Origin: a virus
Taxonomy: Duplodnaviria > Heunggongvirae > Uroviricota > Caudoviricetes
Length of the DNA: 31,386 bases
IMG/VR virus record: IMGVR_UViG_2713896900_000011
Direction: 5' to 3' (one strand)
In this document: positions 5,413 through 28,153 of the stretch, piece after piece
Layout: every line of letters starts with the position of its first letter
Position numbering within the stretch: position 1 is the first letter of the stretch
The notes under the pieces: generated by a model
What the model was told of the DNA's origin: nothing
Database searches by the model: none
What the model saw: only the letters and a program-made list of their open reading frames with translations
Program-made: the position numbers and the translations under genes

Positions 5413-6603
5413 TTAATTGCTGTTAACCGAGGTAACCAGACTTGCCAGGTATCTGGAAGTAATACGCTGGCGCAGGGTCAGGTTTTCGAGAGGAGGCACC
5501 GGGGTATAGTCGTAGTCGATATACAGTTTTCCGGCCTTGAGGGTTTCCGCATCATTGGCTTCTTCACTGAACCAGCATGTGCCATCCACGATATAACCGT
5601 TGTTTTTCAGTTCGCGGAATTTGGCATTAATGCCATCAATGATGTCACGAATCAGCGTTGCGGTAATTGGCTTATCAATAGCCCACATGTGCGCCTCGGC
5701 CATCGTGTCGGCCAGTACCTGCGCGGTGCGGGTGTAGCTTTCAAAGAGGAACAGCGGGTCATCAGAGCAGGTACGGTTACCCCAGAAGCGGAAGCCGTCG
5801 CGGCGAATCAGCGTAGTGATGCCTGACTCGTTAAGCAGGTCAGCATCAGTGCCGGACTTCTGCAAATCCCAGAATACAGAGGCGCTGATGCCGGTAACAC
5901 CATTTACCCCGACGTTGGACAGCGTTTTATGCCAGCCCTGCTCCTGGTCGATTTTGGCACGCAGCCCCAGCGCACGGGCGGTGGCATACGCGGTGGCAGT
6001 GGTACTGGTAACCGTATCCCATGCGAGGAAATCCGGCCAGATGACCATCAGCTCACGCTGGCTGAAATTCTGACGGTAGGCTTTTGCCTCGGAAATGGTT
6101 TTACAGCCCCATGCGCTAATATACCCGAATGCATTCAGTTCCTGGCATACCGATGCCAGTGCGACGGCAACCTCTTTGGTGTCCAGTCCCGGTACGCCGA
6201 GAATGCGTGGTTTAACGCCGGTAACCGACTCAGCCCCCATCAGGGCTTTCAGTCCGGTGTACTGACCGTTTTCGTCGGTGGTGCCGATGATATTGGAAAC
6301 GGTCTGCGCGAGTTTCGTTTCCTCGTCGTCGCCGGTGCCGTCTTCCACACGCACGACAACGGTGACCGGTTTTGACTGGTCGGCGATGGCCTGCAACGAT
6401 GCCGCCAGCGTGCCTTTTTTACCGGCCTTTGCAATTGCGCTCTGCACATTGGTTATCAGCACAGGTTTATTGAGGGGGAAGGTTTCCGCATCCGCATCGC
6501 TGGCCGTGCAGACCATGCCGACAATGGCAGTGGATACGGTGGAAATGACGCGGGTGCCGTCGTTAATCTCCAGCACCTGCACGCCGTGATGATAGTCACT
6601 CAT
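5413..6603 (-). CDS. FI: Contractile tail sheath protein FI (396 aa)
   Basis: Size and synteny match P2 gpFI, the first gene of the tail operon. Confidence 0.9.
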   Translation of the reverse strand: MSDYHHGVQVLEINDGTRVISTVSTAIVGMVCTASDADAETFPLNKPVLITNVQSAIAKAGKKGTLAASLQAIADQSKPVTVVVRVEDGTGDDEETKLAQTVSNIIGTTDENGQYTGLKALMGAESVTGVKPRILGVPGLDTKEVAVALASVCQELNAFGYISAWGCKTISEAKAYRQNFSQRELMVIWPDFLAWDTVTSTTATAYATARALGLRAKIDQEQGWHKTLSNVGVNGVTGISASVFWDLQKSGTDADLLNESGITTLIRRDGFRFWGNRTCSDDPLFLFESYTRTAQVLADTMAEAHMWAIDKPITATLIRDIIDGINAKFRELKNNGYIVDGTCWFSEEANDAETLKAGKLYIDYDYTPVPPLENLTLRQRITSRYLASLVTSVNSN

Positions 6604-6902
6604 CCGTTTAACTCCGTGGTTAATGGGTGCAACTATTTTCTGTTGTGCAGAGCATGAGACGCTATTTGACCTGACTGGTCAGTGGATGAAACAACAGATA
6701 AAGAAAAGGCGGACAATTCGCCCGCTATCCTGATTTGTACTCACTCATTTTCCAACTGACAGTTTACATAGCCCAAACGCTATCAAATCTGACAGCCTGC
6801 TTTGAGCGAACAGCAGACATTCATTAATATGTTTGTTAGGCTAACTTTATATGATGATTACTGAAATTGACCTTAGTTTGAGAATTGCATTAGGGGAATA
6901 AA
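6604..6902. promoter_or_regulatory. Divergent intergenic region: expected late promoter for the FI operon (- strand) and promoter/RBS of the cargo gene (+ strand)
   Basis: A 299-bp AT-rich non-coding gap between divergent genes. An AGGGGA Shine-Dalgarno lies about 7 nt before the ATG at 6903. A TGTTGT...ACAACA inverted repeat sits at 6641-6646 and 6691-6696. I could not place exact promoter elements. Confidence 0.4.
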
Positions 6903-8009
6903 ATGGATGTCAATGAACTTAGAGAGTTACTTATCAAGTATAATGGCCTTCAAAATACTGATGAAGTCTATACGTTTTATTATGATGAAACGAATAACAT
7001 TCGAAAACTATATTTAAAAGATTCTGGCTTTAATGTTGTAAAGGCGGATAACTTCATCCTTGCAGGAATACTACACAAAGGGTTAAGCACTGACAGCGAT
7101 TATTCAACCCTGTTTCAAAAGCTTAATCTTCAAAAAAGTGTCAATGAGTTAAAACTCAGATATATCGCTAAGGGTAGTTTTTTGGATATGCTTAAATCTG
7201 ATAAGCTTTTAATTATTCTAAACTGGCTTATCGAAAACAATTTCTACATCCATTATTTTAATCTTAATATCACATACTGGTCTATTATTGACATTGTTGA
7301 TTCTATTATTGGAGAGCTACACAATCCTTTTTATATCATGAACCACATGTCACTTAAGAGCGATTTTTATGAGCTTGCCAATAGCAATCCCGATGTTTTC
7401 CTGAATGCTCTACATAAATTTAACTACCCCGATATTCCAGAAGAAAAAATTTATGAGTTTTGCCTCTGGCTTATCGATTTTACATGCATGCACAGTTGTA
7501 TGCTGCCAGATTTTCGAGCACACGCACTCGAAAATTTGGTTAAAGAATCTCTAAAAATCGAAGAACTACCGTTCATATCGGGATTTCATGGTCGAAAACT
7601 GATCGATAGCTTTATGGTATTTTATTTAAGAAACTTGTATCTATTTAAAAATTCCGTTCACATATTTGATGAAGAAAAAAGCATTCAAGATGAAGTTAAA
7701 AACTTCCCGTTAACTGAAAATGGCATACCAATACAGAATCATGAATTCGTTAAATCCCACAACTCAGAGGCTATCCAACTATCTGATGTTATCGCAGGCT
7801 TTTTGGGTAAGTATTTTTCTTACTTAAAAGATGTAAATGACGAGCAATTAGCGATTGATAAGTCAGCCTTAACGAGCAAGCAATTTAAGACCCTTTCTGC
7901 GTTAAAACACATTATTGATGTTTCTGATGATGTTAGCAGAGGATTTTTTAATGAAGTTAGCAGCGAGGGAGAGCGACGGAGAAATAATCGTTTTTTACAT
8001 GGCGTATAA
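6903..8009 (+). CDS. AT-rich cargo protein (368 aa) at the Z/fun-equivalent locus; DUF3800-like motifs; candidate anti-phage/abortive-infection protein
   Basis: A visibly low-GC gene on the opposite strand to the flanking late genes, with a strong SD. The N-terminal motif YTFYYDETNN and the C-terminal motif AIQLSDVIAGFL resemble the conserved DESG and QxADxxAG motifs I associate with DUF3800. The family assignment is from memory, not a search. Confidence 0.6.
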   Translation: MDVNELRELLIKYNGLQNTDEVYTFYYDETNNIRKLYLKDSGFNVVKADNFILAGILHKGLSTDSDYSTLFQKLNLQKSVNELKLRYIAKGSFLDMLKSDKLLIILNWLIENNFYIHYFNLNITYWSIIDIVDSIIGELHNPFYIMNHMSLKSDFYELANSNPDVFLNALHKFNYPDIPEEKIYEFCLWLIDFTCMHSCMLPDFRAHALENLVKESLKIEELPFISGFHGRKLIDSFMVFYLRNLYLFKNSVHIFDEEKSIQDEVKNFPLTENGIPIQNHEFVKSHNSEAIQLSDVIAGFLGKYFSYLKDVNDEQLAIDKSALTSKQFKTLSALKHIIDVSDDVSRGFFNEVSSEGERRRNNRFLHGV

Positions 8010-8108: not shown

Positions 8109-8687
8109 TTATTGCGGCATTTCTGGCCATTCTATATCCGGAGTATTTTCCGACTGAACGCGATTCAGTAGCACACGGTATTTTTTCCAGTGTGTCAGGC
8201 TTAACCTTTCTTCCTCGGTAGCCATATCTAAATCGACAGCATCCTGCAGCGTGGCAATAATTTCACCTGCATATGCAATCAGCTCTTTCTTCTGAGAGTC
8301 AGCCGCTCTGACAAGCGCATCACGCTCTGCATTCTCATCATTCACCCACGCATTTCCGTTCCATTTCTGATAATCCCCATCCGGGGAAATGGCTGTCACG
8401 TCTGGAGGTAATGCGCCAAGTTCAGAAATATAAATGGCTGCTCCTGTTTTTGTTTCATAGACAGTCTTTCCACGATGGTCTTCCACCAGATCCCATTTCA
8501 TTTCATCTGCATTGAAAACGGCGGCAAAACCCACCGGAATATCTGGAGGTGCAATGTCTGTACTGTTTGCTGGAAGACCTGTATGCGGCGGAATATATGC
8601 GTCACTTTCGCCAATAAATTCATTGGTTCCATCAAGTAAATTGAAAACGCGGATAGTTTGTGTCTCTGCACTCATTCTGAAAGTCAT
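8109..8687 (-). CDS. G: Tail fiber assembly protein G (192 aa)
   Basis: Immediately downstream of H, with its ATG overlapping the H stop by one nucleotide. Size and position are typical of P2 gpG/Tfa chaperones. The true start may be the internal MSAETQ. Confidence 0.8.
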
Positions 8688-19197: not shown

Positions 19198-19370
19198 TGT
19201 CAGGAGTCCTGAATAGTGATTAGAGGAGTCACATGTCGGCATCAGTTTCCCGACGATGCGCATCCTCCGCCATCAGTCCCGGATGGCTTATCACTGACAC
19301 AACAGCACCTTAGCGAATCGCGTGGCGCGACTCAGTAGCCTTGCCGTGTATTCATCACGGCGAGGTATTC
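19198..19370. promoter_or_regulatory. Divergent late promoter region between O (- strand) and P (+ strand)
   Basis: A non-coding gap between divergently transcribed late operons; in P2 this holds the Ogr-dependent PO and PP promoters. I did not find a perfect TGT-N12-ACA element by eye. Confidence 0.4.
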
Positions 19371-21143
19371 ATGACCATCACCACAGACACCACTCTTTTA
19401 CACGACCCGCGTCGTCAGGCGGCGCTGCTGTACTGGCAGGGGTTTTCCGTGCCGCAGATTGCCGCCATGTTGCAGATGAAACGCCCGACGGTGCAGAGCT
19501 GGAAACAGCGCGACGGCTGGGACAGCGTTGCCCCCATCAGCCGTGTCGAAATGAGTCTGGAAGCGCGGCTGACCCAGCTCATCATCAAACCGCAGAAAAC
19601 CGGCGGTGACTTCAAGGAAATTGACCTGCTGGGACGTCAGATTGAACGACTGGCACGGGTAAACCGCTACAGTCAGACCGGCAACGAGGCAGACCTTAAT
19701 CCGAACGTCGCTAACCGCAACAAAGGCGGGCGCCGCAAACCGAAAAAGAATTTTTTCAGTGACGAGGCCATCGAAAAGCTGGAGCAGATTTTCTTTGAGC
19801 AGTCTTTCGAATATCAGTTGCACTGGTATCGCGCCGGGCTTGAGCACCGCATCCGCGATATCCTGAAATCCCGCCAGATTGGCGCGACGTTTTATTTTTC
19901 CCGCGAGGCGCTGCTGCGCGCCCTGAAAACCGGTCATAACCAGATTTTTCTGTCGGCCAGTAAAACACAGGCGTATGTGTTCCGCGAATACATCATCGCC
20001 TTTGCCCGGCTGGTTGACGTTGACCTGACCGGTGACCCGATTGTCCTGGGCAATAACGGCGCAAAACTGATTTTTCTCGGCACCAACTCCAACACCGCAC
20101 AGAGCCATAACGGCGACCTGTACGTCGATGAGATTTTCTGGATCCCGAATTTTCAGGTACTGCGTAAGGTGGCATCAGGTATGGCCTCACAGAGTCACCT
20201 GCGCTCGACCTATTTCTCCACCCCGTCCACGCTGGCGCACGACGCCTACCCGTTCTGGTCGGGTGAACTGTTCAACCGGGGACGCGCCAGCGCCGCCGAA
20301 CGCGTGGAAATCGACGTCAGTCATAACGCCCTTGCCGGAGGTCTTCTCTGTGCGGACGGCCAGTGGCGGCAGATTGTCACCATTGAGGACGCCCTGAAAG
20401 GTGGCTGCACGCTGTTCGACATTGAGCAGCTTAAACGCGAAAACAGCGCCGACGATTTTAAAAACCTGTTCATGTGTGAATTTGTTGACGACAAGGCGTC
20501 GGTGTTCCCGTTCGAGGAGCTGCAACGCTGCATGGTCGATACGCTGGAAGAATGGGAAGACTATGCACCGTTTGCCGCAAATCCGTTCGGCTCCCGCCCG
20601 GTATGGATTGGTTACGACCCGTCACACCGTGGCGACAGCGCCGGATGCGTGGTGCTGGCACCGCCGGTGGTGGCCGGTGGCAAATTCAGGATCCTTGAGC
20701 GTCACCAGTGGAAAGGCATGGACTTTGCCACCCAGGCAGAATCCATCCGCAAACTCACCGAAAAATATAACGTTGAATACATAGGGATTGATGCCACCGG
20801 CCTCGGTGTCGGTGTGTTCCAGCTCGTGCGCTCGTTCTATCCCGCCGCGCGCGATATCCGCTACACGCCGGAAATGAAAACCGCAATGGTGCTCAAGGCA
20901 AAAGACGTTATCCGCCGTGGCTGTCTGGAATATGACGTCAGCGCCACCGACATCACCAGCTCGTTTATGGCTATCCGCAAGACCATGACCAGCAGCGGAC
21001 GCAGCGCCACCTATGAGGCCAGCCGCAGCGAGGAAGCCAGCCACGCCGACCTCGCCTGGGCGACCATGCACGCCCTGTTAAATGAGCCACTCACCGCCGG
21101 TATCAGCACCCCGCTGACATCCACCATTCTGGAGTTTTACTGA
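19371..21143 (+). CDS. P: Terminase large (ATPase) subunit P (590 aa)
   Basis: The start MTITTDTTLL... gives 590 aa, equal to P2 gpP. The stop overlaps the Q start (TGATG). Confidence 0.9.
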   Translation: MTITTDTTLLHDPRRQAALLYWQGFSVPQIAAMLQMKRPTVQSWKQRDGWDSVAPISRVEMSLEARLTQLIIKPQKTGGDFKEIDLLGRQIERLARVNRYSQTGNEADLNPNVANRNKGGRRKPKKNFFSDEAIEKLEQIFFEQSFEYQLHWYRAGLEHRIRDILKSRQIGATFYFSREALLRALKTGHNQIFLSASKTQAYVFREYIIAFARLVDVDLTGDPIVLGNNGAKLIFLGTNSNTAQSHNGDLYVDEIFWIPNFQVLRKVASGMASQSHLRSTYFSTPSTLAHDAYPFWSGELFNRGRASAAERVEIDVSHNALAGGLLCADGQWRQIVTIEDALKGGCTLFDIEQLKRENSADDFKNLFMCEFVDDKASVFPFEELQRCMVDTLEEWEDYAPFAANPFGSRPVWIGYDPSHRGDSAGCVVLAPPVVAGGKFRILERHQWKGMDFATQAESIRKLTEKYNVEYIGIDATGLGVGVFQLVRSFYPAARDIRYTPEMKTAMVLKAKDVIRRGCLEYDVSATDITSSFMAIRKTMTSSGRSATYEASRSEEASHADLAWATMHALLNEPLTAGISTPLTSTILEFY

Positions 21144-22165
21144 TGAGCAAGAAAAAAGGGAAAACACCGCAACCTGCGGCAAAAAAAATGACCGCCAGCG
21201 CCCCGAAAATGGAGGCATTCACCTTTGGTGAGCCGGTGCCGGTACTCGACCGCCGTGACATTCTGGATTACGTCGAGTGCATCAGTAACGGCAGATGGTA
21301 TGAGCCACCGGTCAGCTTTACCGGTCTGGCAAAAAGCCTGCGTGCTGCCGTACATCACAGCTCCCCGATTTACGTCAAACGCAATATTCTGGCGTCGACA
21401 TTTATCCCGCATCCGTGGCTTTCCCAGCAGGATTTCAGCCGCTTTGTGCTGGATTTTCTGGTGTTCGGTAATGCGTTTCTGGAAAAGCGTTACAGCACCA
21501 CCGGTAAGGTCATCAGACTGGAAACCTCACCGGCAAAATATACCCGCCGTGGGGTGGAGGAGGATGTTTACTGGTGGGTGCCGTCCTTCAACGAGCCGAC
21601 ACCTTTCACGCCCGGCTCCGTGTTTCACCTGCTGGAGCCCGATATTAATCAGGAGCTGTACGGCCTGCCGGAATATCTCAGCGCCCTTAACTCTGCCTGG
21701 CTGAATGAATCGGCCACGCTGTTCCGCCGCAAGTATTACGAAAACGGCGCACATGCCGGATACATCATGTACGTCACCGATGCCGTGCAGGATCGCAACG
21801 ATATCGAAATGCTTCGCGAAAACATGGTGAAGTCGAAAGGCCGCAACAACTTTAAAAATCTGTTTCTCTATGCCCCGCAGGGGAAAGCCGACGGCATTAA
21901 AATTATCCCGCTCAGTGAAGTGGCAACGAAGGACGATTTTTTTAATATCAAAAAAGCCAGCGCCACTGACCTGCTGGACGCGCACCGCATCCCCTTTCAG
22001 TTGATGGGCGGCAAGCCGGAGAACGTCGGGTCGCTGGGTGATATTGAGAAAGTGGCAAAGGTCTTTGTCCGCAATGAGCTTATCCCGCTACAGGACAGGA
22101 TTCGGGAAATAAACGGCTGGCTTGACCAAGAAGTTATTAAATTCAAAAATTATAGCCTAGACTAG
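21143..22165 (+). CDS. Q: Portal (capsid) protein Q (340 aa)
   Basis: Size and synteny match P2 gpQ, co-transcribed with P. Confidence 0.9.
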   Translation: MSKKKGKTPQPAAKKMTASAPKMEAFTFGEPVPVLDRRDILDYVECISNGRWYEPPVSFTGLAKSLRAAVHHSSPIYVKRNILASTFIPHPWLSQQDFSRFVLDFLVFGNAFLEKRYSTTGKVIRLETSPAKYTRRGVEEDVYWWVPSFNEPTPFTPGSVFHLLEPDINQELYGLPEYLSALNSAWLNESATLFRRKYYENGAHAGYIMYVTDAVQDRNDIEMLRENMVKSKGRNNFKNLFLYAPQGKADGIKIIPLSEVATKDDFFNIKKASATDLLDAHRIPFQLMGGKPENVGSLGDIEKVAKVFVRNELIPLQDRIREINGWLDQEVIKFKNYSLD

Positions 22166-22182
22166 GTATTTTAGATAATAGC

Positions 22183-22200
22183 GCCGCTAGTAATAGCGGC
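22183..22200. terminator. Candidate bidirectional intrinsic terminator hairpin between convergent Q and the cargo operon
   Basis: GCCGCTA-GTAA-TAGCGGC: a 7-bp perfect stem with a 4-nt loop, flanked by T/A-rich sequence on both sides, lying between the Q stop (22165) and the last cargo stop (22220). Confidence 0.4.
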
Positions 22201-22219
22201 TTATAGTTCAGAAAAACAC

Positions 22220-22867
22220 TTATTCCTTCGGTTCATGATAGAAGTTTATGGGATAATGAATCACTTCATAATCTAAATTTGATACAGAATGTTTATGAGT
22301 ACTATAAAATACTAGTGGATTCTTATCACACTGCTGAATATTTATTTCTCTAGACGCATGAATTTTGGGCGCATTTTTAGTCAAGTAGGCAATATACTGT
22401 TGCATTACAGCAGAGCAAAGCTTATTTTTTGTATAGATAATTACACCACCCGATGCACTATCAACAGTCCCTGTACTATATCGCTCAGTAAGTTGCGAAT
22501 ATCCCTTAAAAAGGTACGAATATCCTGATGAGTGTTTCTTGGCTTCGCCATGCCATGTAAAATCTGCTAATTGAATTGTAATATCGCAATGACCGCGCTG
22601 ATTAACTTCATGATAAGCTCTTATCCCTAAGAATTCGTTATCTATTATTCCCAGAAGATGAAGTGTCAATTGGTCTTCGGTAAGTTCAAAGCCCATTTTG
22701 TTTGCATTTTGCTCAATTTTTCTTACTGCATAATCAAGTAACTCACGAACAAAAGCCTTAAAGTTATTATAAGATTCCATAGCATATGTCACCGCTGTAA
22801 GAATCTTATTAGCATTATCTATTACGTTATTTTTACGAATATCTGCCAGACTGAAACGTTGGACCAT
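22220..22867 (-). CDS. Cargo operon gene 3 (215 aa): hypothetical protein with a possible PD-(D/E)xK-like nuclease motif
   Basis: AT-rich. Its ATG lies 1 nt after the gene 2 stop and is preceded by a GGGGAG Shine-Dalgarno. The segment GHCDITIQLADFTWHGEAKK has the D-x13-E-x-K spacing of a PD-(D/E)xK core; this is an inference only. Confidence 0.6.
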   Translation of the reverse strand: MVQRFSLADIRKNNVIDNANKILTAVTYAMESYNNFKAFVRELLDYAVRKIEQNANKMGFELTEDQLTLHLLGIIDNEFLGIRAYHEVNQRGHCDITIQLADFTWHGEAKKHSSGYSYLFKGYSQLTERYSTGTVDSASGGVIIYTKNKLCSAVMQQYIAYLTKNAPKIHASREINIQQCDKNPLVFYSTHKHSVSNLDYEVIHYPINFYHEPKE

Positions 22868-22868
22868 G

Positions 22869-23288
22869 TCAACTCCCCACTTTCTTTAAAGAAAAGAAGG
22901 GGAAAATGAAATCCTCATAATCAGTTAAAATATCACCTGTTACAGGATGTTCAAATATATGATTTTTTTCCGCATCCATAACCTCACCAACGGTTACCGG
23001 ATAAAAATCGTCATTTTCATCAACAAAAAAATACTCCAATCTTAAAAGACTTACTTTAGGATTACATAAAACCTGAATGGCGATATAAATTTTATCGTTA
23101 TTTATTTCATCCGTAAAAGAAAGATTACCACCATTCTCTTTGATATACAGATTAACAAGATCTGGATAGCTCATTAAACAGTTTTTTTTACATTGCGGGG
23201 AGAGCTTCATCAATGCATTATAGAGAGCGCATGCGATTTCACCGACATTCGCATCAGTAACGCATATTTCTTTAATAATGTCTGCCAT
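22869..23288 (-). CDS. Cargo operon gene 2 (139 aa): hypothetical protein
   Basis: AT-rich. I take the start as the ATG at 23286-23288 (MADIIKEI...), preceded by a strong GGGAGG Shine-Dalgarno. The track's start 5 codons upstream overlaps that SD. Confidence 0.6.
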   Translation of the reverse strand: MADIIKEICVTDANVGEIACALYNALMKLSPQCKKNCLMSYPDLVNLYIKENGGNLSFTDEINNDKIYIAIQVLCNPKVSLLRLEYFFVDENDDFYPVTVGEVMDAEKNHIFEHPVTGDILTDYEDFIFPFFSLKKVGS

Positions 23289-23316
23289 TGATTTCCTCCC
23301 CATACCTACTACCTTC

Positions 23317-24480
23317 TTAAACGATTAAACTCATTAAACGTTCAAAATCGTCCCGTCCCAGACAATTATTAATAATAGCATAGTTTACTGACGTGGAGCT
23401 AGAACCTCCGAGGTAACGGCGAAGAGAGCCGGGAATGATCAACTCAAGATCATCATCTAGTGATAGAAGCACATTCACTCTTGAAATTTTTATACCAATC
23501 TTGTAAAGACCTATCTGCCCTACTGCTTTAATTCCTTCTTGGTTAAAGATATCATCACGCAAATCTTTTTTTGCTTCTTTTTTCTTTTCCTGATGCGTAG
23601 TTCCCTCTGGAGTATAGAAAGATAATTCAAAAACTTGATAATCGCTTGCATTAAAAGGATAGGTGTTTTGAGCAAAAATTTGTTCAATTAGAGGGAAAAA
23701 GTCTTTTTCTGTCGAAACAAAATCAGCCCCCATATAATCGTATAATTTTCTAACAATTACGGTTTTAGAAAATGTAATTGTCTCTCCAATAACATTTTTG
23801 GGAGCATCAATAAGTATATTGATAGTGTTATCTTGTATATTTAAAATACAAACATCAAAACATTGTCTTCTAACTTTCTTTTTGGCTATGATTTCATCGT
23901 AGCTTTGATATTGTGGGATTGTTTGCGGTGAGACCTTTTCTTTTATTACTTGCTCCCTGACTGATGAAAAAAGGGCTATCACTTGATTGCTGTCAGTAGA
24001 GCAAAAGATTAGTTGAGGGCTATTTTTAGGTGTGGATAATAACTGTTGCTCATTAAGAATGTAACTTGATACATTTTGTAAAATAGTAGTGTTTGCCCAT
24101 TCTGTCTGAATGGCTAAGCTTAGCCCTGTCATGGTTGGAGCATCAATTGCCAAAGAAAAAATAGCCTTATCGCCATAGAAAAACTGACTAAAAAGAAGGT
24201 CATTAATTTTCTTTAACAATGAGTCAAATTTAACTCTGTCCGTGTCTCTAATTTCAATCAACTGCTCTTTAACTTTATTAAAAGTCGCATCCTTACCGCG
24301 ACCAAGAGAAAAACCTAATGACGACAAAACAGATTTTACTATAGACCAACTTATTCTATTAAATAGACAATTCAGACTTTTTAGTTCAATGTCAGACAGT
24401 GACGATTGTACTGTATTATTTGCTGCTAATACAGCCTGAGGGACAGATGAATTTACTGTTGTAGGGACAATGCCTGTCAT
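23317..24480 (-). CDS. Cargo operon gene 1 (387 aa): hypothetical protein
   Basis: AT-rich. The track ORF begins at a TTG at 24525; the first ATG (24478-24480, MTGIVPTT...) has a GGAG Shine-Dalgarno about 6 nt upstream. I recognise no domain. Confidence 0.6.
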   Translation of the reverse strand: MTGIVPTTVNSSVPQAVLAANNTVQSSLSDIELKSLNCLFNRISWSIVKSVLSSLGFSLGRGKDATFNKVKEQLIEIRDTDRVKFDSLLKKINDLLFSQFFYGDKAIFSLAIDAPTMTGLSLAIQTEWANTTILQNVSSYILNEQQLLSTPKNSPQLIFCSTDSNQVIALFSSVREQVIKEKVSPQTIPQYQSYDEIIAKKKVRRQCFDVCILNIQDNTINILIDAPKNVIGETITFSKTVIVRKLYDYMGADFVSTEKDFFPLIEQIFAQNTYPFNASDYQVFELSFYTPEGTTHQEKKKEAKKDLRDDIFNQEGIKAVGQIGLYKIGIKISRVNVLLSLDDDLELIIPGSLRRYLGGSSSTSVNYAIINNCLGRDDFERLMSLIV

Positions 24481-24598
24481 TGCAAACTCCAGTTCCGCTA
24501 ACAAAACCTCTAAGAATATTGGCAAGCAAGTATCTTCAAATATCAGGGAAAGTCAATCCAATAGCTCTCTTTTTGCGATGGGAAACTGTTAGCGCGCA

Positions 24599-24617
24599 GT
24601 GCTTTCCCCGCCTCGCC
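24599..24617 (-). other. cos site (19-nt cohesive-end sequence)
   Basis: The minus strand reads GGCGAGGCGGGGAAAGCAC, which I recall as the P2 19-nt cohesive end. Confidence 0.75.
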
Positions 24618-24944: not shown

Positions 24945-25163
24945 CTATCGTCTGCGTGGTGGTGGCGTAACTCTTGATTGACCGATATGATTAAACCGCC
25001 CGTAATTATCCCGGACTATTTCGGCACACCCGACTAGCTCATCGGGCGTCAGATTTTCGTTGACCATAATCCGCTGTAAACGCTGAACAATAGCCATCAG
25101 CTTGATATTTTTAGTTTTATGGTGTGGTATCTCACCTGGTATTCTGTGCATTATCCAAGCCAC
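24945..25163 (-). CDS. Hypothetical small protein (72 aa)
   Basis: An ORF between the ASCH-like gene and cos, with nothing recognisable; the call rests on coding context only. Confidence 0.3.
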   Translation of the reverse strand: MAWIMHRIPGEIPHHKTKNIKLMAIVQRLQRIMVNENLTPDELVGCAEIVRDNYGRFNHIGQSRVTPPPRRR

Positions 25164-25606
25164 CCGTTTTGCTGTGCACGCTCCATCTGTTCATCTGAAT
25201 AGTTCCATGCTCCATCCGTGGCAACCATTGCCCCGCCAGACATCCCCGTCTCTGGTTCATACATAACAGCAAGGCCGAGCTGATGCATAATTTCATGATT
25301 AATTCTGAATACCAGGCCACGCTCACTAAGTTCTTTCCAGTTCACAATCTTATATGCGCCCGTATTAAGCAGCTCAATACTTAGCAAGACATAATCTTCC
25401 AGCCAGTCTGACAGGTCAGTAACATCTGTTATCCGGGCTTCAACCTTTCGCCCCGTAAACACACCCTGCACCCATTCATGCAAAATCAACGTGTCCCCGC
25501 ACTCATAATTACGGTCATTTTTCCGAAACTCTGCGCGTTTCTTTCCTTCCAGCACAAGGTCAAAATATTTTGCGTGCAGCTTTACCTCGTGAATTTTGGC
25601 CATCAT
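25151..25606 (-). CDS. Hypothetical protein (151 aa) with an ASCH/PUA-like N-terminal region and an HExxH motif
   Basis: The ATG at 25604-25606 lies 2 nt after the A stop, with a GGAG Shine-Dalgarno. The N-terminal half (KIHEVKLHAKYFDLVLEGKKRAEFRKNDRNYECGDTLILHEW) looks ASCH-like to me; the C-terminal half contains INHEIMHQLG (HExxH). Confidence 0.5.
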   Translation of the reverse strand: MMAKIHEVKLHAKYFDLVLEGKKRAEFRKNDRNYECGDTLILHEWVQGVFTGRKVEARITDVTDLSDWLEDYVLLSIELLNTGAYKIVNWKELSERGLVFRINHEIMHQLGLAVMYEPETGMSGGAMVATDGAWNYSDEQMERAQQNGWLG

Positions 25607-25608
25607 TT

Positions 25609-27888
25609 TCACTCCATTACTGTTGAGAATCCCGGCCACTCATCAGCGACCGGATACGTGAATTTTTTCCCGTCATAATTTACGGTCGCGCCACGCGCCA
25701 GCGCCTCAAGCTCCCATCGCTGCGGCCTGATACCGTTCTGAGCAAGGTCAACGCGGATACGGGTAATTTGCATTCTTTCCGACCGGGTCAGTCTGGCCGA
25801 TGGTGCAATTTCATGTGGTTTTAACGGGCTTCCGTTTCTTTGCTGACGACTTGGCGTTCTCCGACCGTGTTTTAATGCACCTCTGAGCGCCCTCACGACC
25901 TCCGGGTCACTCCATTCGATAACACCGTCATCAACCAGATTAAGCACTGCTGCGGCGTGCTCAGAAGGTGTGGGAGCCGGTAACGAAGTATCACCACCGG
26001 TGAGTTTTCCACAGTTATTGACAGGACTCCGAGGCGCGGCGATGCCGCTTTTTAACGTCAAAGGCTCAACGACCGGCACTTTCGGAACAATGCGCCAGTC
26101 CGTCGTTCTGGTGATATGAATATGACGCGCGCCGAGATGCGGCGCGTAAATGCCGACCACTCTCTCGACTTCTTCCTCGTACTCGTTAACTTCATCCGAC
26201 GGGCTACGGGCGACTCTGACAGTCTGGCAATCACGCGGAACATTTGCCCCACCCTGCGCGCTGATATACAACGCAAAATCACCACTGTCTGCGGCGGCAC
26301 GTGCAGCCTCAACGCGTTCGTCAAACTCATCAGCAATGCTGACGCCGCGAGGCAATTTGCGTAGTTCACGGTAAGCCCCCATTGTCGGCAGACCAACCGT
26401 TTTAAATTGCGGAATGCGCCACGTTGACGCCCATGCGGTAACAGCAGCAGCTGTGTCTTTCAGCGGCCTGCCGGTATCGTTATCGAGCTGCCCATCCAGT
26501 GCATAGCCGTCGATGTTTTTTGAAATGTATTTCGCGATATATCCCGCTGCACCGCCCCGGTTAAGGTGTTTTGCCTGAAAACGGTTTCGCGCGGCTCCTC
26601 TTTCGTCGCCATCCTCTTTGAGCGCATAGCGACGCATGATTTCGATAATCTGGTTACGCTGGCGTGGATTACAAAAAAGCATCATATGCCAGTGCGGTGT
26701 TCCATCGTGGTGTGGCTCGACGACTCGCAAACCGTAGACCTGTAAATCATTATCCTTGAATGCCGTGCGCATCAGGCTCCAGATACGGCAGAGATAACGC
26801 TGCGCATCCTTTGGATTAAATGCCTCATCGTTCCAGCCGTGATTTAGCTGGACGGTTTTACTTTCGCCTTTTCCGACCTGACGTGTCGGGTGATACTTTG
26901 ACGGCGTGGTCAGCGTGATAAACATCCCCACATCGCCCTCTGCGGCGGCGTAACGCTCAATACCGGCAATGGTGTTCATCAGCTCCATCCGGCGAATTTC
27001 TGGATTAGAAATACTGCCCATCACCTTACTGATAAGGTCGATGCGCTCGCCGGTTTCCCTGTTTTCAAGGTCACACGATTTAAGAAATTCCAGATTTGCC
27101 TGGCGGCGTGCACGCACATCACGAATGGCATGTTTACTGGCATAAGGAGAACGGTCTTTATTGACCTCCCCGACAGCAATCAGTAACGCCTCATGCCAGC
27201 GCATACGCTGGCCTTTAAGCTGACTAATCCACCACTCATCGTTAAACAGACGGGCAATGGCAGAATATGCCTGCCTCGTGGTCATCTGTCCTTTACGGTA
27301 TTTTTTCCAGTAGAGAGGGGAAATATTGAAAGCACGTGCAGCGCCAGCAACATGACCATAGAGGTGAGCCTGCGCCTCATCCGTAAACAGCGATTCTTTT
27401 TCGCCATGCGCATCCACCCAGGCATCGCAGAGTTCCTCATACATCATGAAAAGCTGCGATGAAATACGGGCGGCAAACTTTTTCAGCTCCTTATCATTCA
27501 TCCCCGGCAGACGCGCATAATGGTCACGCTCTACCAGAAACAGCAACGACGCGTCGGTATTCATTTCATGGCGCTGATTCACGCGCTCAATGCGCGGCCA
27601 TAAACGACGCTGAAAAGTGGATGTGAGGAAATAAAACCCGTGCACCGGGCTTTTATTGCGCCGGATGTAGTCATAGCGTGAAGTAAACAGCGAACGCAAA
27701 AAGTAAGGCAGGCGGTTAATCGTGGATAAAACACCTTGCACCTGACGCATCTCGTCACGTGTAAGGGGTCTTTCGCGCCCGACGGCCTCGCGTGGCGCGT
27801 TCCATGCATAAGCACCGGTAAACGTCTTACCGGTGCCTGCGGCAAATGCTGACGGAGGGACAAAATGCCCGGAGGCTTTAACGGCCAT
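25609..27888 (-). CDS. A: Replication initiation protein A (rolling-circle initiator, about 759 aa)
   Basis: The start MAVKASGHFVPPSAFAAGTGK... matches my recollection of the P2 gpA N-terminus (P2 gpA is 761 aa). The track's ORF starts 14 codons upstream at 27930. Confidence 0.85.
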   Translation of the reverse strand: MAVKASGHFVPPSAFAAGTGKTFTGAYAWNAPREAVGRERPLTRDEMRQVQGVLSTINRLPYFLRSLFTSRYDYIRRNKSPVHGFYFLTSTFQRRLWPRIERVNQRHEMNTDASLLFLVERDHYARLPGMNDKELKKFAARISSQLFMMYEELCDAWVDAHGEKESLFTDEAQAHLYGHVAGAARAFNISPLYWKKYRKGQMTTRQAYSAIARLFNDEWWISQLKGQRMRWHEALLIAVGEVNKDRSPYASKHAIRDVRARRQANLEFLKSCDLENRETGERIDLISKVMGSISNPEIRRMELMNTIAGIERYAAAEGDVGMFITLTTPSKYHPTRQVGKGESKTVQLNHGWNDEAFNPKDAQRYLCRIWSLMRTAFKDNDLQVYGLRVVEPHHDGTPHWHMMLFCNPRQRNQIIEIMRRYALKEDGDERGAARNRFQAKHLNRGGAAGYIAKYISKNIDGYALDGQLDNDTGRPLKDTAAAVTAWASTWRIPQFKTVGLPTMGAYRELRKLPRGVSIADEFDERVEAARAAADSGDFALYISAQGGANVPRDCQTVRVARSPSDEVNEYEEEVERVVGIYAPHLGARHIHITRTTDWRIVPKVPVVEPLTLKSGIAAPRSPVNNCGKLTGGDTSLPAPTPSEHAAAVLNLVDDGVIEWSDPEVVRALRGALKHGRRTPSRQQRNGSPLKPHEIAPSARLTRSERMQITRIRVDLAQNGIRPQRWELEALARGATVNYDGKKFTYPVADEWPGFSTVME

Positions 27889-28153
27889 GTGAGCCAAAAG
27901 CCTCTGAACAACGCTTGCTGAGTTGCTCAACCTGCGCGTTTAAATCAGCAAAAGATTTTGCGCTTCCGGTCAGAATATCGTGATGCATCATGCCGGAAAC
28001 GAGCTGGCTTAATTTCGGGTAATAACCAACCACCGCCAGCCATTCCTGACCGGCGTTTTTACCGCTTTCCGCTCTCTTTTTCTCGTGGAGAATAAACTGA
28101 AAGCTGTCACTGGTAACGACATAACGTTCGCCAACTTCGATACGAATACTCAT
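27878..28153 (-). CDS. Hypothetical early-operon protein (91 aa)
   Basis: A small ORF directly upstream of A on the same strand, in the position of the P2 orf80-83 cluster. Confidence 0.5.
   Translation of the reverse strand: MSIRIEVGERYVVTSDSFQFILHEKKRAESGKNAGQEWLAVVGYYPKLSQLVSGMMHHDILTGSAKSFADLNAQVEQLSKRCSEAFGSHGR

Follow-up and report, generated by a model that had tools for sequence, protein, structure and literature searches.

A conserved three-gene cargo module at the cos-proximal hotspot of P2-like prophages, encoding a predicted nuclease and possibly serving anti-phage defence

The gpA-gpQ/cos region of P2-like prophages is an experimentally validated hotspot of defence cargo, from which old/tin, Rst_3HP, DUF4238 and DprA-PRTase have been shown to defend (Rousset et al. 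2022, PMC9122126). In the companion hotspot of P4, six of eight randomly picked loci of unknown function protected against phages. Here we analysed a three-gene locus (genes A, B and C) located at this site in a P2-like prophage, represented by IMG/VR virus record IMGVR_UViG_2713896900_000011 (Caudoviricetes); the window refers to this whole stretch of 31,386 nucleotides (nt), in which the trio occupies the interval from 22,166 to 24,598, with the terminator of the portal gene Q on one side and cos on the other. A first-pass annotation, made by a model from the sequence alone, had already recognized the locus as cos-proximal hotspot cargo, in keeping with the published work. Sequence comparison indicates that the trio is a widespread and unnamed accessory cargo module of temperate phages, satellites and plasmids. 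Its most likely role, which we propose with moderate confidence, is that of an anti-phage or anti-mobile-element defence (exclusion) system expressed from the prophage.

The closest described relative of the trio is System #91 of the same survey (Rousset et al. 2022, Table S5B, PMC9122126), which encodes proteins of 368/144/221 amino acids (aa), has an empty Pfam field and was counted in 36 of 18,150 P2 hotspot loci. It belongs to the same family and lies in the same E. coli P2 gpA-gpQ hotspot, and its C protein shares the motifs HENNQRGHCDIT...WHGEAKKH...QLTERYS. System #91 is a sister variant that corresponds to two of our loci (L007/L008), with about 51/37/62% identity to A/B/C of the window. 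Its motifs are absent from the tables of cloned and tested systems of that paper (PMC9122126), and literature searches by accession number, motif and fold term gave nothing on the family beyond this entry; a "defense modularity" preprint and a 2026 NAR paper on P2/P4, which were also considered, describe other systems. The initial proposal of an undescribed system therefore stands as far as the trio is unnamed and unannotated, and has to be corrected in that a sister variant had been catalogued. Rst_3HP (hp+hp+hp, pFR109, from E. coli E1114), which protects against P1 (PMC9122126), had been suggested as a possible identity. Both systems are trios of functionally unassigned genes from the cos-proximal hotspot of P2, a likeness that does not discriminate since many unrelated systems share it, and they differ in protein size (333/359/227 aa in Table S2A versus 387/139/215 aa for the trio). 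BLASTP and hidden Markov model searches against the published proteins gave nothing better than E 0.1 in a five-sequence database. In a positive control with the PADLOC Hp1-3 models, the true Rst_3HP proteins were matched at E 1e-157 to 1e-248, whereas A, B and C gave no match at E<=1, and membership of Rst_3HP is thus excluded.

Two further exclusion systems are instructive. The old/tin/orf91 genes of P2 are lysogen-expressed exclusion genes of the same hotspot and the same phage family, but their proteins are unrelated to those of the trio, and the two sets of genes are found on opposite sides of cos, old/tin/orf91 towards gpA in P2 and the trio towards Q. Lambda RexAB is likewise prophage-encoded and expressed in the lysogen, and the fold set to which RexA belongs is that of the structural neighbours of protein A. 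The trio differs from RexAB in that no RexB-like polytopic membrane partner is encoded in the block, in that its effector is a predicted nuclease, and in that A has no profile similarity to RexA.

Searches of A, B and C against PADLOC 2.0, Pfam and NCBIfam returned nothing meaningful at E<=1. The silence of PADLOC is informative because its model collection detects the true Rst_3HP proteins and another gene of this window. The only catalogue matches were to PHROG families of unknown function (phrog_12777, phrog_11490 and phrog_9664), and ten distant relatives of A together with several of B and C were equally without catalogue match, except for a weak similarity of two distant C proteins to PDC-S54. 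A megablast search against the phage collection gave no match, and homologues surfaced only at the protein level. With the exception of one clearly spurious UniRef name, the databases call every cluster member "hypothetical protein", and the E. coli genes under the trio matches are nearly all annotated in the same way. These searches agree with the first-pass annotation, which could assign none of the proteins to a known family, and they revealed no clear homology to a non-defence function. Its view of the proteins as unassignable holds at the level of families and not at the level of folds, since A and C could be placed in an RdgC/RexA-type and a PD-(D/E)xK fold, respectively.

The block differs sharply from its surroundings and looks foreign in composition. 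Between 22000 and 24500 the GC content is 0.33-0.39, compared with 0.53-0.60 for the backbone, and the change in composition at either edge occurs inside about 100 bp; the three genes have a GC of 0.33-0.35 and a GC at third codon positions (GC3) of 0.27-0.29, compared with 0.52 and 0.64 for Q. A spacer of 28 nt separates A from B, with GGGGAGG six nt ahead of the ATG of B, and the stop codon of B (TGA) lies 1 nt from the ATG of C, with GGGGAG upstream. The block is bounded by a hairpin on the Q side and by an exact P2 cos on the other. All this corresponds to what had been read from the sequence beforehand, namely a tightly packed low-GC block of three minus-strand genes between a hairpin and cos. 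In E. coli STK77-E (99.9% identical), RefSeq lists the same three coding sequences, of 387/139/215 aa, as hypothetical proteins. The open reading frame (ORF) of gene A continues upstream to a TTG at 24525, and gene B has an alternative ATG further upstream that gives 144 aa.

The three genes are conserved together. The arrangement A-B-C, with the genes adjacent and co-directional, was kept by 59 of 61 non-redundant loci at identities as low as about 20-30%, and searches starting from A and from C agreed on this linkage (C-seeded scans of viral contigs yielded 27 and 67 loci). One of the two exceptions is cut by the end of the contig. The other (L110, IMGVR_UViG_3300011605_000012, 1-2182) is the sole locus with A and C in which B was not detected, B homologues being found across the other trio loci. 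A fusion of B with C was considered for this locus and rejected, the long ORF upstream of C having no B-like sequence; the roughly 500 bp between A and C may contain a B that has decayed or diverged strongly. The start codon of C lies at most 5 nt from the stop of B in 56 of 59 loci and the two genes overlap in 45, counts that are somewhat generous because the start-codon heuristic favours nearby starts. In every one of the 61 loci the trio has a lower GC content than its flanks, in hosts ranging from 34% to 64% GC. Reading frames of the homologues are intact across these loci, and synonymous divergence (dS) is saturated while nonsynonymous divergence (dN) is 0.14-0.54, so that no dN/dS value is given; together this argues that A, B and C are genuine genes under purifying selection. 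The first-pass annotation had taken them for one functional unit, and their co-occurrence with conserved order and orientation, far outside P2-like phages, supports this conclusion.

Close homologues (37 A clusters and 36 C clusters) all come from Enterobacterales. In their loci the order A-B-C is convergent on Q, on P2-like backbones in which gpA is only 31-38% identical and backbone genes have diverged much further than the trio. An exhaustive profile search with A recovered 405 representatives after clustering at 50% identity (E<=1e-3), 204 of them at E<=1e-10, and among the 150 matches listed nearly all were full-length, with 340-380 aa. Five distant relatives of A were inspected, and each sufficiently long contig bears a trio of about 350/135/215 aa whose partner genes are true B and C homologues (E 1e-14 to 1e-46).

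The P2-like Q/cos site accounts for about half of the loci. At a second P2-like site, used in high-GC hosts, the trio stands beside GpU, GPD and the tape-measure gene. It is also carried by one Mu-like phage, by a satellite-like element in Providencia (with integrase, primase and Ogr/Delta), by a contig with ParA, a resolvase and Peptidase_M78, by phages of Acinetobacter, Moraxella and Vibrio, and by plasmids of Calothrix, Pseudomonas, Vibrio, Photobacterium, Rhizobium, Pantoea, Enterobacter, Leclercia and Moritella. In Stx1a-converting lambdoid phages, a variant of 350/130/221 aa lies between the antiterminator Q and stx1A on the opposite strand, and this variant was found in seven deposited Stx1a-converting phages. 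Thus, the co-occurrence of the three genes extends to lambdoid and Mu-like phages, a satellite-like element and plasmids. Moreover, the trio is intact in decayed P2 remnants of Cronobacter and Serratia. Among 5426 complete E. coli genomes, the allele of the window occurs once (STK77-E), the sister P2-type variant 21 times and the Stx1a-phage variant 23 times, including in O145:H28. One strain, E. coli TUM9812 (NZ_CP128926.1), holds two variants, one of the Stx-phage type (at 2.09 Mb) and one of the P2 sister type (at 3.43 Mb).

In those related P2-like loci for which a cos-like site could be located (L010/L012/L020/L044/L046 and L011), the trio is mostly on the Q side. At L011 9885, the trio lies on the gpA side of cos, as do old/tin/orf91 in P2, which indicates that the hotspot has two insertion sub-sites flanking cos. 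The locus of Klebsiella phage KP12 clone KP12_3 (L002, OM835953) is filed under Vequintavirinae; this 34.8-kb sequence carries P2-like genes for a portal, a terminase, a GPO-type scaffold, a P2-type capsid and a gpA-like replication protein, and so resembles a P2-like prophage that was co-purified more than a piece of a Vequintavirus genome.

Defence or toxin-antitoxin genes often stand beside the trio, among them AIPR, Mrr_cat, YafO, AbiEi and PRTase-CE with NADAR. In Serratia ureilytica (L010, 5836-7474), the trio follows a PRTase-CE + NADAR pair and a pair of a phospholipase-like and an ankyrin gene. In another locus (L016, 365-3825 and 8181-9236), a pair formed by DUF3226 and a 958-aa gene, and an Mrr-type nuclease, flank the trio. 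Both neighbourhoods look like defence islands with further uncharacterised pairs.

Protein C is the presumed effector. Its predicted structure has a restriction-endonuclease alpha/beta core (alpha-beta-beta-beta-alpha-beta), and structure comparison placed BamHI, OkrAI, BglII and BstYI at the top of the matches; other neighbours are the DNase toxin CdiA-CT EC869 (7.8), McrC (6.9), HamA (6.6), NucC (6.0) and also Cap4. Residues H86-E87, G92-H93-x-D95, W105-x-G-E108-A-K110, Q125 and R129-Y130 are invariant in close and in about 30%-identical homologues, as judged on 26 close and 9 wide-range sequences. In the model, strands 96-100 and 103-111, the second and third of the core, carry D95 and the ExK motif. 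C is therefore predicted to be a PD-(D/E)xK nuclease with an apparently intact D95...E108-x-K110 active site. Sequence-profile searches of C against the PDB gave chance-level matches only. With the type II enzymes named above, McrC, HamA of Hachiman, NucC, Cap4 and SduA, protein C shares the core and the D...(E)xK motif, at 5-17% identity to the chains compared, and none of their Pfam or PADLOC models was matched. The trio further differs from these systems in having no methyltransferase, HamB helicase, McrB GTPase or cyclic-nucleotide sensor domain, and the Hachiman signature (HamA DUF1837 plus HamB helicase) was not found in it. Two distant C homologues match the PADLOC candidate PDC-S54 weakly through its C-terminal part (about residues 240-385 of 410): L050, 5971-6636 (E 5e-6) and L018, 7511-8140 (E 6e-4). 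The C of the window has no such match, unlike these two. This similarity hints that a C-type nuclease domain has been fused into a single-gene candidate defence protein.

The fold of C raises the possibility of a narrower form of defence, in which the trio would be a solitary modification-dependent, type IV-like or methylase-less restriction enzyme, with C cutting the invader's DNA directly and A and B recognising the target, and with no abortive infection. The matches of C to BamHI, OkrAI, BglII, BstYI and also McrC are consistent with this, as is the DNA-binding fold of A. Only A, B and C lie between Q and cos, and no methyltransferase was found within or adjoining the block among the ORFs or by Pfam, which also fits. 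However, no McrB-type AAA+ GTPase partner was found, Pfam detected no modified-base reader domain (SRA, YTH, Mrr-N, DUF3427 and similar), and known type IV enzymes include nothing comparable to the mandatory acidic protein B. Of the explanations weighed here, we regard this one as the least probable.

Protein A is the putative sensor. Its model shows a disordered segment (residues 1-25) and a helical region (30-102), followed by an RdgC-like alpha/beta body. Two methods and two libraries agree on a fold like that of RdgC over the centre and base domains, and the structural neighbours are RdgC, CENP-L/Iml3 and Chl4; the best viral matches are phage proteins annotated as RdgC or recombination-associated. 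RexA, the sensor of lambda exclusion, is itself reported to have an RdgC/Iml3/Chl4-type fold and to bind DNA non-specifically (PMC11077077). The models place A in the RdgC/RexA/Iml3-Chl4 fold class, at the level of fold only. Indeed, A has no match to Pfam RdgC (PF04381) at E<=1, hhalign of an A profile of 85 sequences gave a probability of 0.6% with E. coli RdgC and of less than 1%, with no signal, with lambda RexA, and A profiles of 26 and 85 sequences gave chance-level matches only against the PDB. Identity of A to RdgC, a nucleoid- and recombination-associated protein of E. coli (PDB 2OWL), and to phage RdgC-like proteins is 8-12%, and A differs from RdgC by its additional N-terminal helical region and by being regularly accompanied by B and C.

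The resemblance to RdgC would also suit a trio that serves the phage or plasmid itself, either as an RdgC-like modulator of RecA or recombination with a structure-specific nuclease, or in counter-defence or host takeover. RdgC modulates RecA and replication restart (PMC11077077), and the viral matches of A point in this direction. PD-(D/E)xK nucleases also act in recombination, and the trio of Stx1a phages lies near the late-gene switch. Against such a role, the trio is patchy and dispensable (36 of 18,150 P2 hotspot loci, less than 1% of E. coli genomes), runs opposite to the adjoining phage operons, and is kept in prophage remnants unable to replicate as well as on plasmids. The nearest folds of C, moreover, are type II restriction enzymes and not lambda-Exo, RecE, Cas4 or resolvases. 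A function for the carrier itself is therefore an unlikely explanation, if less so than a solitary restriction enzyme.

Protein B is small and acidic in all 32 diverse members examined (isoelectric point 4.3-5.7, median charge -9). It is the fastest-evolving of the three (dN 0.38-0.54), with only two word-based matches, and it matches phrog_11490 (E 2e-22). A B family profile built from 21 sequences had no PDB or Pfam match, and no helix-turn-helix or antitoxin fold was seen. A, B and C all lack transmembrane segments, with a maximum 19-residue hydropathy of 1.49, 1.14 and 0.85, respectively; a membrane effector, which was considered, is thereby ruled out.

An acidic protein encoded just upstream of a nuclease is also what would be expected of a toxin-antitoxin pair, and the trio might be a tripartite toxin-antitoxin or addiction module that stabilises its carrier, with C as DNase toxin, B as antitoxin or immunity protein, and A as regulator or third component. 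The B-C pair fits such a module as well as it fits defence. However, A is the largest of the three proteins and as strictly conserved as B and C, which is unusual for an accessory component, B has no helix-turn-helix or autoregulator signature, and the preferred sites are phage defence hotspots and not plasmid maintenance regions. We consider addiction unlikely to be the main role of the trio, although it comes ahead of the two alternatives discussed above. It is not exclusive of a defence role, as many toxin-antitoxin modules defend against phages.

Defence is thus the role that we favour. It is suggested by the hotspot location, the P4 precedent, a nuclease with an intact motif and a partner with a RexA-type fold, and also by the strict linkage of the three genes, their transfer between unrelated elements, the presence of defence genes in their neighbourhood and their retention in dead prophages. 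By analogy with lambda RexA, protein A would be a soluble sensor, probably a dimer that clamps DNA, and might recognise the DNA of the invader or intermediates of its replication or recombination. Protein B may bridge A and C, most likely keeping C inactive until A is triggered; triggered A would then either relieve the restraint that B exerts on C or recruit C via B. C would cut DNA, of the invader alone or also of the host, in which case the outcome might be abortive infection. What we infer from these comparisons is that A binds DNA, that the three proteins touch one another, what triggers the system and which DNA is cleaved, and that a phage-resistance phenotype results.

Several observations weigh against a defence role. 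The trio has no PADLOC, Pfam or NCBIfam match, and defence is argued from context and fold only. It is rare in E. coli, with about 45 of 5426 complete genomes over the three variants, and the toxin-antitoxin arrangement accounts equally well for B and C. The isoelectric point of A spans 4.8 to 9.3 within the family, a spread that one would not expect of a generic DNA clamp. The AlphaFold2 models were built on shallow alignments (26 sequences). In addition, RdgC homologues of lytic phages are regarded as part of the DNA metabolism of the phage itself.

The family is real, conserved and uncharacterised, and a hotspot-borne nuclease cassette is of a kind already known and brings no new principle. 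If it acts in defence, it would be a family missed by PADLOC 2.0 and by Pfam and NCBIfam naming up to 2026, with at least 405 A-type clusters at 50% identity, distributed over several phyla and all major classes of mobile elements. More tentatively, it might represent a new broad defence family of Gamma- and Alphaproteobacteria and Cyanobacteria, in which a sensor of RdgC/RexA fold licenses a restriction-fold nuclease through an acidic adaptor or inhibitor, and which would include an unnoticed immunity module in Stx1a phages. If this is true, an RdgC/RexA-type fold would serve as an immune sensor and might shed light on the long-unresolved mechanism of Rex; Rex-type sensing would here act through a DNase in place of a membrane channel, and the RdgC fold would gain its first mechanistic partners in immunity. 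Should the trio turn out to be a toxin-antitoxin system or to benefit the phage, its strict three-way linkage would still define a new functional unit worth naming. In any case, our analysis flags unannotated cargo in medically relevant elements, namely in Stx1a-converting phages, just upstream of stx1A, and in the P2-like prophages that E. coli, Salmonella and Klebsiella carry. It could have consequences for the host range of phages used in therapy and for the competition between prophages.

The features of the locus and of the rest of the window are collected in Table 1. The hairpin between Q and gene C is probably a bidirectional terminator. The cos motif that closes the block on the other side is identical to that present in P2 and P4 constructs (Rousset et al. 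2022, Table S2, PMC9122126). The sigma-70-like site between cos and gene A is a candidate promoter of the operon by match to the consensus only, and such promoter-like matches are no commoner in the region than in shuffled sequence.

Table 1. Position of the trio and of other features in the window; the last row refers to a Stx1a-converting phage and its own numbering.
Feature	Position	Strand	Size or sequence	Remark
Tail-sheath-like ORF	5413-6603	-		flanks the 368-aa ORF
368-aa ORF	6903-8009	+	368 aa	DUF3800; P2 Z/fun position
Tail-fibre-assembly-like ORF	8109-8687	-		flanks the 368-aa ORF
Terminase P	19341-21143	+		
Portal Q	21143-22165	+		convergent with gene C
Hairpin	22183-22200		GCCGCTAGTAATAGCGGC; 7-bp stem, 5 G-C pairs	between Q and C; terminator-like on both strands
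Gene C	22220-22867	-	215 aa	predicted PD-(D/E)xK nuclease, presumed effector
Gene B	22869-23288	-	139 aa	small acidic protein; putative adaptor or inhibitor of C
Gene A	23317-24480	-	387 aa from ATG	putative DNA-binding sensor
Sigma-70-like promoter match	24556-24529	-	TTGACT-16 nt-GATACT	between cos and gene A; consensus scan
P2/P4 cos 19-mer	24599-24617	-	GGCGAGGCGGGGAAAGCAC	exact, 0 mismatches; other boundary of the block
72-aa ORF	24945-25163	-	72 aa	no family match
orf91-like ORF	25151-25639	-	162 aa	replication-gene side
gpA	25609-27930			replication gene, beyond cos
Stx1a-type trio	5541-7648 in L114 (phage Stx1_499, LC567825)	opposite to Q/stx1A		also in L055

On the gpA side of cos, the orf91-like ORF is the sole remaining P2-like cargo, old and tin being absent. 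It contains DUF3850/ASCH and DUF7415, and over residues 12-86 it matches the first 75 residues of P2 orf91 at 97% identity, with a different C-terminus. A second low-GC island lies at about 6500-8000, and its 368-aa ORF matches DUF3800 (Pfam E 2e-7) and the PADLOC candidate PDC-S51 (E 1e-106). These matches suggest that this ORF is probably a second defence cargo of the prophage.

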